A DNA stretch of 64,000 nucleotides from Candidatus Iainarchaeum sp. (GTDB lineage Archaea > Iainarchaeota > Iainarchaeia > Iainarchaeales > VGJJ01), in NCBI GenBank assembly GCA_043803765.1, contig JAZDJQ010000018.1, positions 32,001 through 96,000 on the forward strand, given 5' to 3'. The notes beneath the pieces were generated by a model. That model was not told the origin of the DNA. It did not search any database and was given only the letters and a program-made list of their open reading frames with translations. Positions 9,351 through 61,300 of the stretch are shown piece by piece (the first letter of the stretch is position 1; each line of letters opens with the position of its first letter). The position numbers and the translations under genes were made by a program.

Positions 9351-10004
9351 TTACGAGTCCTTCCCCTCTTTTCCCTCACGCACAACAGGGGGCTCCTTTT
9401 CTTTCCCACGCAAAGGATTGGATATTCGTTCCAAGGGATTAGGAATATTCTCAAGTGCATGACGCAAGCGCTGACTGCGCGACAATTTAGGAGCACTCTC
9501 AACGAGTGCAATCGTAAGAAGACGGTTCTCCAAAACACCATGCCAATGATAATACTTCGAAACATTCTCAACATTGGAATAGAATGAATGAACATCCCCT
9601 ATTTGTCCAGAAAACTTTTCACGAAAATCACGAATAAAGGATTGATACTGGGCAAAGTCGGCGTGAATCGACTCCATCAAAACCGAATGCATTCCAGGAC
9701 CTTCTCCTTCCGTAGCAAATAAAACAGACGGGGCATCCTGCATCCACTGCACCATTTTTTTAACAATAGAAGAAGAAGACGGTTTAATCGTTGTCATCAC
9801 CCAAAAATGAAGACCCAGTTTAGCCAAATTAGGAAGAATAACAAACCGATCAATATATTTCTCATTCATCAAACGAGAACGAAGACGAGTAATCGTAGGC
9901 TGGGACGTCTTAAGTTTGGAGGCTAACTCCCTATCCGAGAGACGAGCATTCTTCGCAAGCGCAAGCAAAATCTCCCGTTCACGCGAAGAAAAGGTATTTT
10001 TCAT
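9351..10004 (-). CDS. Lrp/AsnC-family transcriptional regulator
   Basis: ILLALAKNARLSDRELASKLKTSQPTITRLRSRL wHTH; PNLAKLG linker. Confidence 0.85.
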   Translation of the reverse strand: MKNTFSSREREILLALAKNARLSDRELASKLKTSQPTITRLRSRLMNEKYIDRFVILPNLAKLGLHFWVMTTIKPSSSSIVKKMVQWMQDAPSVLFATEGEGPGMHSVLMESIHADFAQYQSFIRDFREKFSGQIGDVHSFYSNVENVSKYYHWHGVLENRLLTIALVESAPKLSRSQRLRHALENIPNPLERISNPLRGKEKEPPVVREGKEGKDS

Positions 10005-10206
10005 ACACTAAAAATGGTTTTAGAGGGATTTAAGGCTTTTCATCCACCACACAAATCGTATGATAAACCCCGTTCAAATGAAAAATAGAGAGACTCATAC
10101 AATGCTGAAACAAACAAAACACGCCAAAATCTGCATACATGATACAGAATAACGGCGAAAAGGTTTTGACAGGCTTTTATATAATGAAATTCAAGAAAGA
10201 CAACAG

Positions 10207-10305
10207 AGGTGGTTGCCAAGATCGGGAACACGAAAACTCAAACTAAGGTTTGGGAGTTAGGCTCACCCGGCTCGAACGGGAACTTCCGATGACTCCCAAC
10301 CACCT
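10207..10305 (+). ncRNA. Candidate structured ncRNA (~100 nt)
   Basis: TTTTATATA at 10175-10183; closing stem AGGTGGTTG/CAACCACCT, inner stem ATCGGGA/TTCCGAT, two internal hairpins; pyrimidine-rich tail. Confidence 0.45.
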
Positions 10306-10528
10306 TTCCCTATTCTTCACAACAACTCAAAAGCACTCTTCTTCTATCGTCTCCTCGAATTCAAGGGGAGTTGGGGAATGCAACTCCCCGCTCTCTTTGA
10401 ATTATTTTTTTTCACCGGTTCGAATTCTTTATCTTTTATTACACGGCATAGCACAATGGCGCTTTCCTCTCCACCGGCATTAAAACACTTTACCCATGGA
10501 ATGTTTTACTCCACCCTGTTTTACCACT

Positions 10529-22730: not shown

Positions 22731-23016
22731 AAAGGCCAATGCAAAGCCACTTTTCTCAGGGGTTTTTACAAAGTAAAAAGGCCCATGCGATAGCAAATTT
22801 TCCCCGGGGTTTTTACGAAGTAAAAAGGCCGAAGTGAAACAACTTTTCCCCGGGGTTTTTATGAAATAAAAAGGCCGAAGCGAAGCATTCTTTTCCCCGG
22901 GATTTTTACGAAGTAAAAAGGCCGAAGCGAAGCAAATTTTCCCCCGGGGCTTTTTCCAACAGGAAAAAGGGCCGACGCGCAAGCTACTTTTCGCCGGCCT
23001 TTTTTAAAAGGCCGAA
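22731..23016. repeat. Tandem array of ~46-47-bp hairpin repeats (6 units plus a partial one)
   Basis: Units start at 22751, 22798, 22844, 22891, 22937, 22988; consensus TTTTCCCCGGGGTTTTTACGAAGTAAAAAGGCCGAAGCGAAGCAAA. Confidence 0.92.
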
Positions 23017-41277: not shown

Positions 41278-41335
41278 CCCCATTTTTACCCACCTAATAA
41301 AAATCGCCCCCTTGTAAGAATAATACCGTTTACAG

Positions 41336-41428
41336 GGACTCGTGGCTTATTCCCGCCTTTTTCATACGGTGATACCGAGGGAGTATGCAGTAGGTTTTAA
41401 CAAACCCACGATAAATGAATACATGCAG
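41336..41428 (+). repeat. tRNA-5'-linked ~92-bp structured unit (copy upstream of tRNA-Ile)
   Basis: Starts GGACTCGTGGCTTA (tRNA-Ile starts GGACCCGTAGCTCA); stems TATTCCC/GGGAGTA, GCC/GGT, GTAGGTTT-TAAC-AAACCCAC. Confidence 0.75.
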
Positions 41429-41502
41429 GGACCCGTAGCTCAGCCTGGTAGAGCAGCGTTCTTATACAGCGTCCGTCGGAGGTTCAAATCCTCCCGGGTC
41501 CA
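41429..41502 (+). tRNA. tRNA-Ile(TAT)
   Basis: Acceptor GGACCCG/CGGGTCC-A; D stem GCTC/GAGC; anticodon loop CTTATAC; T arm GGAGG-TTCAAAT-CCTCC. Confidence 0.88.
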
Positions 41503-41570
41503 CTTTCAATATTGCCCCGCTGAAAAAAAATTCCCTAATTTTAAGAATCCGCCACTCAATGACCTTCGGG

Positions 41571-41895
41571 ATGTCTTTCGGTGTGCTTGAGACAAATACG
41601 TTCTCAGAATTATTTGAGTATCTTGAACCGAACGAGAAGAAATGGATTCGAAAAATAATAAGACAATTGAAAGAAAACCTAACTGTTGGAAAACCACTAG
41701 GGCCTGAATGGTTTAGAGAAAAGAAATGAAGGAAAAAGACTTTATTTTCTCACGTACCCGAACCGAAATAAATCGTTACTGATTGCTTTTGGCGATAAGA
41801 AAAAACAACAAGAGATCATTGATTTAGTACGTAAAAATATGAATGTGTACCAAAAAATAATCAATGAACCGCTTTCCGAATGCGACCATCCCTAA
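41571..41895 (+). pseudogene. Frameshifted RelE-like toxin (paralog of 6167-6502)
   Basis: MSFGVLETNTF...VGKPLGPEWFREKK* (TGA 41727), continuing in +1 frame EGKRLYFLTYPNRNKSLLIAFGDKKKQQEII...HP*. Confidence 0.75.
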
Positions 41896-42001
41896 TATCA
41901 TCGAAACTCGCCTTCATCTGCTCTAAAACATCCGACAATTCCGATGCCTTCCTTTTAGTCAATGGTGTGCGGCGCTCTACTGCAGTAATGGTACGGGACA
42001 T
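41861..42001 (-). CDS. 46-aa putative antitoxin convergent to frameshifted toxin
   Basis: MSRTITAVERRTPLTKRKASELSDVLEQMKASFDDIRDGRIRKAVH*. Confidence 0.6.
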   Translation of the reverse strand: MSRTITAVERRTPLTKRKASELSDVLEQMKASFDDIRDGRIRKAVH

Positions 42002-42433
42002 ATGGTAGCAGGGGCGCAACTCCTATTTAAAATAATCTTTAAAAAAAGACCGAAAGCCCACCGCCTGTCTGTGCATGAAATCCACCTATTGCCCAATCCA
42101 ACTTTGTATTTAAGTCTCGTGGAATCAACATGCCCCATTCCGTTGCCCATTAATGCTTTCCATTGCCTTACGTTGCGCGTTTTATTTTTCTAAATTAAGG
42201 ATTGATAAATCGTTCATACTAAGCATGATACCGCCCCGCTCTGCGCGGAGACAGGTGATACATCATGGAAAACAATACCAACATGCAAAAGAAAAACCAG
42301 TCCAATCAACCGCAAATGGGAAACGATAAAAAAAGACGCGTGTAAGTAAGAATGGGAAAAAAACGGGGGGACGCAAAAAAAAACGGATGAACCCCGCGAA
42401 ATTGTTTCAAAACAAAAACGTTTTCAATCGCAG

Positions 42434-43282
42434 CTAATCCTTCTCTATTATTTCTTTCAATAACTCATTCACAAAATCCATTGAGGCATCGTTCAATAAA
42501 ACCACATCAAACAAACACTTGAATTTTTCTATCTGCTCATCCACTTTGTCATTTAGAAAACCAATTTTTATAACCACCTCGTGGTCAAACCCGCAGAGCA
42601 TCTCGGCATCACCAAGGGAATCACCCAATAACAATACATTCCCACGGCCACGAGCCGATTTTTCATATGGCGTGCCTCGCACAGCGGTTTCATTCTTGTT
42701 TAGCGAATGAATAATAGGATTAGCATAACCCGTCACACAACCTGATGAATCGTATTGATACTTGTTTGAAATCACATGAACGTTTGGAAAAAACAATCCT
42801 TCCTTCTGAAGAAAACCCTCAATTAAATCCGTCACACCGGCAGAGAGAATGAGAATCGGAACATGATGACGGTTCAACGTAGTAATAAAAAAAGGTAATC
42901 CTTTTCGAAGATTAGAGGGTTGTTCCGCGATCATCTTTTCCATTATACTTCGTGATAGGCCATGTTCTGCTATTACTTTCACGTGGGTGGACCACCATTC
43001 CTGCATTTTTTCTTTACGCTCTTCAAGGGAAAGAGAATAATCCGTCTCAAAAGAATGATAGGTATCAAACAACCCGTATGCTTTTTTCACATACTCATCC
43101 GACAAATAATGATATTTTCTAATCAATTCAATCAAGGAGTTGTGTTTTTCTCCATCCCGAAAGGCACACGTAAGCGTCTTGTCATAATCCGCCACCACAT
43201 GCAATTTTCCCAATCCACCCTCTCTCAATGCCTTTTTCTTTTGCTCAAAAACAAGGGGATTTACCACTACTACCGAATCCAT
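42434..43282 (-). CDS. Pyrimidine 5'-nucleotidase (NT5C3/UMPH-1 type HAD)
   Basis: ADYDKTLT, MQEWW..H, LSAG, ISN, IHSLNK, LLGDSLGDAEM, KIGFLN. Confidence 0.88.
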   Translation of the reverse strand: MDSVVVVNPLVFEQKKKALREGGLGKLHVVADYDKTLTCAFRDGEKHNSLIELIRKYHYLSDEYVKKAYGLFDTYHSFETDYSLSLEERKEKMQEWWSTHVKVIAEHGLSRSIMEKMIAEQPSNLRKGLPFFITTLNRHHVPILILSAGVTDLIEGFLQKEGLFFPNVHVISNKYQYDSSGCVTGYANPIIHSLNKNETAVRGTPYEKSARGRGNVLLLGDSLGDAEMLCGFDHEVVIKIGFLNDKVDEQIEKFKCLFDVVLLNDASMDFVNELLKEIIEKD

Positions 43283-59425: not shown

Positions 59426-59701
59426 GGCTCCGTGGTATAGCTGGATAATTTCAACGGTCGCCACGACGAGCTATTGGGTAGGGTTTTCAATCCTATTGTA
59501 GACCAATCTGCTGCATGCCCGCGTGGTGCAGTCGGCCGATTTCGCACGGCCACCACGAGGGACTACATGGTTGGATTTTCAATCCAACAGTAGGTCAATC
59601 ATTGTACACTGCCTGTGTGGTGTAGTCCGCCGTTTTCGTCCGGCGGCACCGACGGACTAACGCAGGATTTAACAATCCTGCAATAGGCCAAATAAAATAC
59701 G
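59426..59701 (+). repeat. Three tandem tRNA-5'-linked ~92-bp structured units
   Basis: Units at 59426, 59517, 59611 (tRNA at 59702); each begins with a copy of GCCCGTGTGGTGTAGTC; covarying hairpins. Confidence 0.85.
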
Positions 59702-59775
59702 GCCCGTGTGGTGTAGTCTGGATAGCATAAGGGCTTCCGGAGCCCTTGACCTGGGTTCAAATCCCAGCACGGGTG
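59702..59775 (+). tRNA. tRNA-Arg(CCG)
   Basis: GCCCGTG/CACGGGT-G; AGGGC-TTCCGGA-GCCCT; CTGGG-TTCAAAT-CCCAG. Confidence 0.93.
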
Positions 59776-59776
59776 T

Positions 59777-59856
59777 CTAGGGGTTGTTTTACAATCCCTT
59801 TACCGTTTTCCCCGGGCTTTTCTGAAAAGGCCGGTTCCGAATTCCAGCACGGGTGT
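59777..59856 (+). repeat. Hairpin element plus duplicated tRNA-Arg 3' end
   Basis: TTTTCCCCGGGCTTTTCTGAAAAGGCCGGTTC then CGAATTCCAGCACGGGTGT (13-nt exact match CCAGCACGGGTGT). Confidence 0.8.
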
Positions 59857-60890: not shown

Positions 60891-60974
60891 GCATGCGTAC
60901 CCAAGCGGTCTAAGGGGCCAGACTCAGACTCTGGTGGCTTAGTGCCTTCGGAGGTTCGAATCCTCCCGCGTGCA
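60891..60974 (+). tRNA. tRNA-Leu(CAG)
   Basis: GCATGCG/CGCGTGC-A; CCAGA-CTCAGAC-TCTGG; long variable arm; TTTAAA promoter. Confidence 0.95.
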
Positions 60975-60975
60975 T

Positions 60976-61083
60976 GTCCAGTTCCGATTGGACCAACCGG
61001 CGTAGCGTGATGGCATGCCATCACTCATCCATTTTTCCCCGGGCTTTTCACAAAAGGCCGGTTCTGAATCCTCCCGCGTGCAT
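60976..61083 (+). repeat. Hairpin element plus duplicated tRNA-Leu 3' end
   Basis: TTTTTCCCCGGGCTTTTCACAAAAGGCCGGTTC then T+GAATCCTCCCGCGTGCAT (18-nt exact match). Confidence 0.8.
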
Positions 61084-61191
61084 CGCGGGTTTCGCCCGGT
61101 CGAAATGAAGTAGCATTATAACGAACCATAACTCGTTTTCGCTCCTTTTGGGCATTTCATTTAATTACCCCTTTTACTATTCCTTCTTTTA

Positions 61192-61251
61192 GGGAATGAT
61201 GACGTAAACCCCGACTGACGAAAGGATGATGAATTAACTCACGTCTGACCC
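61192..61251 (+). ncRNA. C/D-box guide sRNA
   Basis: GGG stem, C ATGATGA (61196), 12-nt guide, D' CTGA, C' ATGATGA (61226), 12-nt guide, D CTGA (61245), CCC; TTTAATTA upstream. Confidence 0.88.
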
Positions 61252-61300
61252 GCTTTCTATTTCCATGGGGGTTAAAAACAGGAAAATGGTTTTCTTACGC

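Follow-up and report, generated by a model that had tools for sequence, protein, structure and literature searches.

The tRNA-Arg(CCG) locus and its counterparts in the window

In the window, the stretch of 64,000 nucleotides analysed here (G000:C18:32001-96000), an intact tRNA-Arg(CCG) gene is followed by a short insert and then by a second copy of its own 3' end. The genome to which the window belongs (G000) comprises 1,022,810 bp in 19 contigs with 46 tRNA genes, and an archaeal-type RNase P RNA was found in it. The gene and the features behind it are:

59702..59775, + strand: intact tRNA-Arg(CCG) (ARAGORN; Rfam RF00005, 57.6 bits)
59751-59767, + strand: T-stem/loop/stem of this tRNA
59768-59774, + strand: 3' strand of its acceptor stem
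59775, + strand: its discriminator G
59779..59799, + strand: hairpin 1, a small trailer hairpin, AGGGGTTGT/ACAATCCCT, with a 9-bp stem and the loop TTT (from folds)
59806..59834, + strand: T-run plus family-A hairpin, the dispersed module (from folds; a near-identical hairpin lies at 61037-61061)
59806-59809, + strand: the T-run behind hairpin 1
59812-59834, + strand: hairpin 2 (family A), CCGG-G-CTTTT/AAAAG-G-CCGG, with a G.G mismatch at 59816/59830 (from folds)
59833..59842, + strand: element-borne pseudo-T-loop GGTTCCGAAT = GGTTC-C-GAAT, a T-loop look-alike with 8 bases instead of 7
59843..59856, + strand: orphan copy of tRNA-Arg nt 61-73 plus 1, TCCAGCACGGGTG+T / TCCAGCACGGGTGT, identical at 12/13 positions with T for C at nt 61

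The segments AATCCCAGCACGGGTGT (59760-59776) and AATTCCAGCACGGGTGT (59840-59856) match at 16 of 17 positions and lie 80 nt apart, forming a direct repeat of the 3' part of the tRNA up to the gene end, as integrase att sites do. The insert (about 67 nt) consists of hairpins only, and neither an integrase nor any other element gene is present inside it, the recombinase genes of the genome being located elsewhere. As DNA, the 83-nt stretch at this locus folds better than all of 200 shuffled sequences (z = -3.95), whereas as RNA 38/200 shuffles fold equally well (z = -0.91). A search of the whole window against Rfam at gathering score returned its five tRNAs only, with no match for the insert. Hairpins of the GGGG...CCCC type similar to hairpin 1 also follow tRNA-Arg(TCT) and tRNA-Arg(GCG) in this genome and occur in G005 and L066. 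An earlier note on this DNA had placed both hairpins behind tRNA-Arg, had counted 57 nt between the tRNA end and GGTTCC and had seen a downstream duplication of the tRNA 3' end; its coordinates and hairpins are correct, we measured the same distance, and the repeat above is the duplication that it described.

A second module of the same family is located about one kilobase further downstream, and a tandem array of family-A hairpins lies in another part of the window:

60891..60974, + strand: tRNA-Leu(CAG), the second host of a family-A module in the window (ARAGORN, Rfam)
60976..61083, + strand: insert behind tRNA-Leu(CAG)
60976-60993, + strand: T-arm-like hairpin of this insert, 5-bp stem and 8-nt loop GTTCCGAT
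61007-61024, + strand: hairpin of this insert
61032-61061, + strand: T-run plus family-A hairpin
61060-61069, + strand: pseudo-T-loop GGTTCTGAAT
61070-61083, + strand: orphan CCTCCCGCGTGCA+T, identical at 13/13 positions
22733..23016, + strand: tandem array of 6-7 family-A hairpins from at least three subfamilies, with 12-14-nt spacers and no tRNA nearby

The family-A hairpin behind tRNA-Leu(CAG) (61037-61061) differs from that behind tRNA-Arg(CCG) only in its loop, in the length of the T-run and in one base of the pseudo-loop. The hairpin directly after tRNA-Leu(CAG) (60976-60993) resembles a T-arm mimic with an 8-nt pseudo-T-loop. More tandem arrays with several family-A subfamilies and again 12-14-nt spacers are found at G000:C6:12340-12510 and G000:C11:56190-56300, and tRNA orphans are absent from these as well as from the array in the window. 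Many of the array spacers hold mini-hairpins similar to GCGAAGC, a type that forms very stable DNA hairpins. Behind the tRNA-Leu(CAG) insert lies a C/D box sRNA (61190-61255; ATGATGA ... CTGA ... ATGATGA ... CTGA) that Rfam does not call at gathering score and that shows 94-98% identity in several congeners, compared with about 68% for the adjoining genes.

Tail copies and hairpin modules in the genome and the genus

Counting as a tail copy any stretch within 300 nt that matches nt 61-73 with at most 2 mismatches in 13, we found that 12/46 tRNAs have their own tail repeated downstream, while the cores of other tRNAs, used as control, gave 7/1792. For none of the 46 tRNAs was the own tail found upstream, on the wrong side, or as reverse complement. 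The tail copies behind tRNAs are not a product of chance, and tRNA-Gln(TTG), whose copy has 3 mismatches, can be regarded as a thirteenth case. By eye, a hairpin and a T-loop look-alike precede all 3' tail copies except those of tRNA-Thr(GGT). The 3' inserts measure 44-211 nt, with nothing between this size and 770 nt. The pseudo-T-loop consensus GGTTCYGWAT is present 11 times in the genome, six of them within 400 nt downstream of a same-strand tRNA, a zone that makes up 0.9% of the stranded genome, and the exact hairpin motif is present twice, each time behind a tRNA. The idea that the inserts contain inverted T-arm copies was rejected, as exact 7-8-mers were seen in 0-1 of 30 regions against an expectation of 0-0.5.

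Among the 17 genomes of the genus, AAAGGYYGGTTCNGAAT with at most one mismatch occurs at 26 places in nine genomes. At 22 of these places a called tRNA stands 25-311 nt ahead of the motif, and nt 61-73 of that same tRNA come next after it, with about 15-17 tRNA species serving as hosts. The other four comprise a tRNA cut by a contig end, an orphan 951 nt away from its tRNA, a place beside an uncalled tRNA-Met-like fragment and a case with non-matching downstream sequence; at tRNA-Leu(CAA) of G002 no match to the tRNA comes after the module. The exact motif is all but restricted to the genus, being found in 7/17 of its genomes compared with 2/198 others of the class, and the reversed control gave 3 hits. 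Of the eight genomes read at the orthologous tRNA-Arg(CCG) site, five are filled, four of them (G000, G005, G011 and G010) by family A and G004 by another hairpin family, while the site is empty in G002, G003 and G013. The orphan of G010, CCCCGCACCGGCG, resembles the tRNA-Arg of G010 itself. In metagenomes a 25-mer taken from the tRNA yielded two loci, one identical to that of G011 and one without the module, this second relative having only the small hairpin at tRNA-Arg(CCG). The earlier note had proposed a second dispersed element family at the tRNA T-loop and had named motif copies random with respect to tRNAs, together with a lack of empty alleles in relatives, as what would refute it; the proposal is supported, as empty alleles occur in three congeners and the position is not random for either the exact (2/2 behind a tRNA) or the looser motif.

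Likeness among the hairpins follows the genome and not the tRNA. Their identity averages 0.674 within the same genome at different tRNAs (34 pairs), compared with 0.561 between different genomes at the same tRNA (14 pairs) and 0.584 when both differ (272 pairs). In G002 one hairpin is common to all seven copies, at tRNA-Ser, tRNA-Leu(CAA) and tRNA-Leu(TAG), and one and the same unit is present at 3-4 tRNA species in G002 and at two in G011. This likeness within a genome fits a spread within the genome and not a set of tRNA-specific integrative lineages.

One could also think of the insert as a functional, non-mobile part of the tRNA transcription unit, such as a terminator hairpin, a signal for processing or a decoy 3' end maintained by selection. 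T-runs as well as hairpins with T-runs on both strands could terminate transcription, and with 12/46 tRNAs the arrangement is frequent. However, orthologous sites differ in presence and absence, one site can hold different hairpin families, there is no Rfam match, and the same hairpins stand in arrays far from tRNAs. The orphan lies behind the T-runs and would hardly be part of the tRNA transcript. We regard a purely functional trailer as very improbable because of the site turnover, the T-runs before the orphan, the RNA fold that is no better than that of shuffles (z = -0.91) and the arrays far from tRNAs.

Where the element ends and the target begins can be judged from the alignment of tRNAs with their orphans, in which identity begins only at about nt 59-61. 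The GGTTC-Y-G-W-AT ahead of it is no copy of the local tRNA loop: instead of the A57 of the tRNA the orphans show G57 (Lys, Arg, Pro, Ala, Asn), instead of A58 they show T58 (Leu CAA, Ala TGC, Ser GGA), and in G011 CAAAT stands in place of the GAAT of the tRNA. In G000 and its congeners the variant of the pseudo-T-loop goes with the hairpin subfamily, and at tRNA-Arg(CCG), too, it tracks the subfamily and not the local tRNA. The extra T-loop base that the earlier note had reported is indeed there, but it does not stem from a mutated tRNA loop and belongs to an element-borne pseudo-T-loop, since the loop variants follow the hairpin subfamily and differ from the tRNA. On the outer side identity mostly ends with nt 73 or 74, giving a presumably locally templated repeat of 13-17 nt. 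Identity continues past the tRNA end at tRNA-Gln(TTG) (+7 nt), tRNA-Lys(CTT), tRNA-Asn of G011, tRNA-Arg of G004 and tRNA-Ser(TGA) of G002; the last of these has three stacked copies at one site, and a 21-nt trailer hairpin stands after the tRNA and again after the third, diverged orphan. A longer duplication that includes the trailer T-run is unsupported overall, as the 14 nt behind the tRNA and those behind the orphan show no greater likeness in matched than in mismatched combinations (3.25 and 2.80; 30 pairs, permutation p about 0.07). The left ends of the modules are heterogeneous. As no filled and empty site pair with alignable flanks was found among the congeners, whose coding DNA is about 66-70% identical, we infer the boundaries of the moved unit; in the closest pair, G010 and G013, both genomes hold unrelated inserts, which makes the exact boundary unreadable there.

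A mirror-image form is present at the 5' side of tRNA genes, where 5/46 tRNAs are preceded at up to 300 nt by a copy of their own nt 1-13 (control 9/1792). At tRNA-Arg(CCG) it is represented by the following feature:

59426..59701, + strand: three tandem upstream units of about 90 nt (starting at 59426, 59517 and 59611), mirror-image 5' family

Each unit starts with a copy of a tRNA 5' end followed by two hairpins, and unit 3 repeats nt 1-17 of tRNA-Arg at 16/17 positions. The long hairpin pairs the copied D-region with element sequence (GTAGTCC/GGACTA; the equivalent at tRNA-Ile is TATTCCC/GGGAGTA) and is followed by the second hairpin and by AATAGGCC. The loop of this second hairpin (TTTAACA / TTTTAACAA) lies about 30 nt ahead of the tRNA start, which is the expected position of an archaeal TATA box, and the upstream unit may supply the promoter. 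A degenerate copy of the upstream family is found at 41335-41428, before the rare tRNA-Ile(UAU) (tRNA-Ile(TAT), 41429-41503). At two Ser tRNAs a family-A hairpin was seen by eye in inverted orientation at the 5' side, together with a repeat of nt 1-15.

Mobile module, integrase scar or gene-end replacement

We give a slightly better than even chance to the reading that 59776-59842 is a miniature mobile module, non-autonomous, that on insertion duplicates some 15 bp of local target sequence. The gene-less module would be made up of the small hairpin, the T-run, the GC-clamped and A/T-cored hairpin of a genus-specific family and the 8-nt pseudo-T-loop, of which T-run, hairpin and pseudo-T-loop would in the simplest account form the mobile unit. 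Such a module would insert into a tRNA gene at the T-loop and would leave beyond itself a second local copy of the last 13-17 tRNA bases (nt 59/61 to 73, sometimes plus one). With the tail copy on the far side of the module, the upstream tRNA gene stays complete. The orphan would be made from, or matched to, the local tRNA each time, which would amount to a target-templated duplication comparable to a TSD of about 15 bp. The T-runs of the module probably terminate transcription of the tRNA, as archaeal terminators are oligo-T stretches. Against a duplication of constant length speak tRNA-Ser(TGA) of G002 with its repeated trailer hairpin, tRNA-Gln(TTG) with its 7 extra shared bases and tRNA-Leu(CAA) of G002. 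The data show membership in a family, the link with tRNAs, an orphan that in every instance is local, presence that varies among congeners and hairpins that group by genome, whereas transposition itself, the size and origin of the duplication, the terminator role and any connection with the LAGLIDADG endonucleases at tRNA genes of the genus are inferred.

As in MITEs, the modules are short, non-coding, multi-copy and variable between relatives, but no TIRs matching a transposase-bearing parent were found, the sole inverted repeat being the hairpin, and no parent turned up. No transposase or integrase tied to the modules was found either. Cas1 gave no match in G000 and is missing from 16/17 genomes of the genus, and neither a reverse transcriptase nor a GIY-YIG protein was found in the G000 genome (93% complete). 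A candidate parent and a candidate driver were rejected. One was an IS200/IS605-like element beside tRNA-Arg(CCT), the only element with a Y1 transposase in G000 (gene at G000:C4:232-591, about 260 nt downstream of the tRNA): its ends are unrelated to the modules and unlike 97 tRNA flanks, apart from its own locus and one partial copy of the element end upstream of tRNA-Ala(CGC) on C2. The other was a 184-aa ORF without Pfam match in the tRNA-Ser island of G002, which occurs in 7/17 genomes but not in G000 and of which only 2/10 copies lie near a tRNA.

The direct repeat had led the earlier note to think of attL and attR of an integrative element. In this explanation the insert would be a CIME-like scar or an integrase-less mini-derivative of a tyrosine-integrase element, attL being the tRNA rebuilt by the element and attR consisting of the hairpin, the pseudo-T-loop as an imperfect core-binding site and the resident core. 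The repeat spans the T-loop to the exact tRNA end like integrase att sites of the T-loop sublocation, which reportedly extend over just this part, and the genome has three tyrosine recombinases. Repeats of the same sublocation are found at tRNA-Tyr (six extra cores), tRNA-Met (three) and tRNA-Phe (one), and there they are classical kilobase-scale integrase att repeats, spaced by 0.8-3.6 kb at Tyr and Phe and by several kb at Met, those at Tyr bounding cargo genes. The attR arms of these islands, however, are without the hairpins described here, and the inserts behind the tRNAs are separated from them by the size gap up to 770 nt. Furthermore, instead of a lineage tied to one tRNA core we see one hairpin lineage at many tRNAs per genome, and a 13-nt tRNA-specific core would be hard for an element to change. 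The inverted family-A hairpin at the 5' end of the two Ser tRNAs with its repeat of nt 1-15 also argues against an integrase, as do the viral contigs, in which none of 28 motif matches was accompanied by the family hairpin (by eye). Thus the duplicated tRNA tail of the earlier note stands, but the classical att picture fits poorly with hairpins that group by genome, and we consider it quite unlikely. At tRNA-Tyr itself (G000:C12:125764-135874), six extra 14-nt tail copies split 10 kb into segments of one to a few genes, encoding a carbamoyltransferase, a GDSL-like protein, TauE, a UDG-family protein, Fic and a nucleoside deoxyribosyltransferase-like protein; the region gave no PF00589 integrase, and its layout is that of a tRNA-anchored cassette array.

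Tail and head copies of tRNA genes are also found together with LAGLIDADG endonuclease genes. G000 has 16 LAGLIDADG_3 matches, 14 of them in frames of 1000-1304 aa, which are taken to be putative inteins, and two in short open frames (375 and 355 aa). Both short frames end inside the 5' end of a tRNA, with the stop TAG formed by nt 13-15 of tRNA-Gln(CTG) (G000:C2:10421) and the stop TAA within tRNA-Arg(GCG) (G000:C14:42459). The corresponding double-motif ORFs lie outside the window (329 aa, in G000:C2:9293-10496, encoded at 9446-10432; 349 aa, in G000:C14:41330-42533, encoded at 41424-42470). Across the ORF at tRNA-Gln(CTG), 1128 nt upstream of the tRNA, a 5' orphan AGCCCCGTGGTCTAGTGGTC is present, while at tRNA-Arg(GCG) the upstream side shows only a degenerate orphan-like stretch. 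In the genus, all of the 20 free-standing LAGLIDADG ORFs or remnants counted (one further match was left out) lie within about 1.1 kb of a tRNA. Seventeen abut a same-strand tRNA, seven at the 5' side of Gln(CTG), two at the 5' side of Arg(GCG) and eight at the 3' side of Thr(CGT); the remaining three are near Gly tRNAs on the other strand. Orthologues or remnants of the tRNA-Gln(CTG) ORF occur in 7/17 genomes. The related ORF at tRNA-Thr(CGT) begins 3-6 nt after the tRNA in eight genomes, is reduced to a remnant of about 25 codons in G000, and in G002 and G014 has its stop in the anticodon loop of an orphan tRNA-Thr 3' half. Altogether an orphan gene end across a LAGLIDADG ORF is seen in four cases in the genus. 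An endonuclease ORF between gene ends is thus present at Gln(CTG) of G000 and Thr(CGT) of G002 and G014, and at Arg(GCG) of G000 with the orphan degenerate, but no such ORF lies between orphan and intact gene at tRNA-Arg(CCG).

These genes are a candidate driver of, or model for, the hairpin modules. In a replacement mechanism a LAGLIDADG enzyme would cut the tRNA gene, repair would copy in DNA with a replacement end, and the resident end would become the orphan; the hairpin modules would then be ORF-less remains or hitch-hikers of such elements. Besides the position of both short frames of G000, the 17/20 ORFs or remnants next to same-strand tRNAs, AGCCCCGTGGTCTAGTGGTC and the ORF stops in tRNA-Thr halves, this is supported by the orphans of tRNA-Gln(CTG) in G000. 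The 5' orphan is consistent with the 3' one (C5 with G68), and both equal the functional tRNA ends of G005, while the neighbouring functional gene of G000 differs (T5-A68, G49-C65). Both LAGLIDADG-linked tRNAs of G000 also have a 3' hairpin and orphan. At tRNA-Ser(TGA) of G002 and tRNA-Gln(CTG) of G000 the findings favour incoming DNA equipped with a gene end of its own. On the other hand, no ORF-bearing element was seen at the T-loop position, and the LAGLIDADG ORFs must be old, because they are located at orthologous sites across species, whereas the hairpin modules turn over. A single endonuclease would need to act on some 15 different tRNAs, and the 4-nt overhangs left by LAGLIDADG enzymes do not by themselves give a 15-bp repeat. 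Moreover, the orphans of the hairpin type are near-identical to the local tRNA (0-2 mismatches in 13), unlike the diverged Thr halves. We think it unlikely that the modules are ORF-less derivatives or riders of homing-endonuclease elements that replace gene ends.

A wider hypothesis that would embrace both kinds of locus is an undescribed class of mobile DNA in the tRNA genes of these small archaea, entering at the D-loop, anticodon loop or T-loop and preserving the gene by duplicating or replacing its end. LAGLIDADG genes would be its autonomous members. The 40-200-nt hairpin modules, with a target-mimicking pseudo-T-loop at their end, would be its non-autonomous members, spread among many tRNAs by break repair templated partly by another module and partly by the local gene. 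We put this forward tentatively, as possible although doubtful.

Relation to known elements and possible meaning

Casposons, the Cas1-solo transposons found for example in Aciduliprofundum boonei, are similar to our preferred reading, a mobile module with a short target duplication, in that they insert beside a tRNA TΨC-loop segment with a target duplication of 15 bp, the loop segment acting as 'leader' and the duplicated segment as 'repeat', so that repeated insertion is possible (PMC5137440). Their duplication overlaps the tRNA by only 5 bp (PMC5137440), compared with the last 13-15 nt of the tRNA here. They are also large and encode Cas1 and PolB, whereas the modules here are non-coding and only 1/17 genomes of the genus, not including G000, has Cas1 at all.

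The attL/attR repeats of integrases and their integrase-less, cis-mobilisable derivatives likewise show a direct repeat from the T-loop to the 3' end and leave the gene intact, but here the module has no gene, one hairpin lineage occupies many tRNAs, and a mirror 5' form exists. Fungal mitochondria have mORFs, mobile endonuclease ORFs that bring a replacement for the gene end with them, and also double-hairpin elements. The likeness lies in a duplicated gene end that keeps the function, in small palindromic non-coding relatives and in LAGLIDADG ORFs that stand in the same layout at tRNA genes of this genus. The hosts here, in contrast, are archaeal tRNA genes, and the module at tRNA-Arg(CCG) has no ORF. 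REP/BIME and other palindromes derived from IS200/IS605 share with the modules the short, dispersed and imperfect hairpin, the conserved mismatch and the clusters; they differ in that they are not known to make a target duplication, and the one Y1 element of G000 has unrelated ends. Literature searches outside the subscription journals found no description of such modules. New are the genus-wide tabulation, the proof of an element-borne pseudo-T-loop, the finding that hairpins cluster by genome, the mirror 5' forms and the LAGLIDADG-tRNA fusions.

Viruses and plasmids that integrate classically land in tRNA genes. In this 1-Mb genome it is gene-less DNA that has landed at one tRNA in four, with one family at many tRNAs. 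For annotation the modules are a trap, as they offer pseudo-tRNA ends, false att sites and false island calls, and their orphans keep older tRNA alleles as fossils, as with the tRNA-Gln(CTG) orphans that equal the functional ends of another species. If the duplication of about 15 bp is indeed templated by the target and made in the absence of Cas1, it would point to an undescribed integrase or to a repair route, and if the modules are tied to the LAGLIDADG genes, they would show how homing endonucleases colonise genes without introns or inteins.
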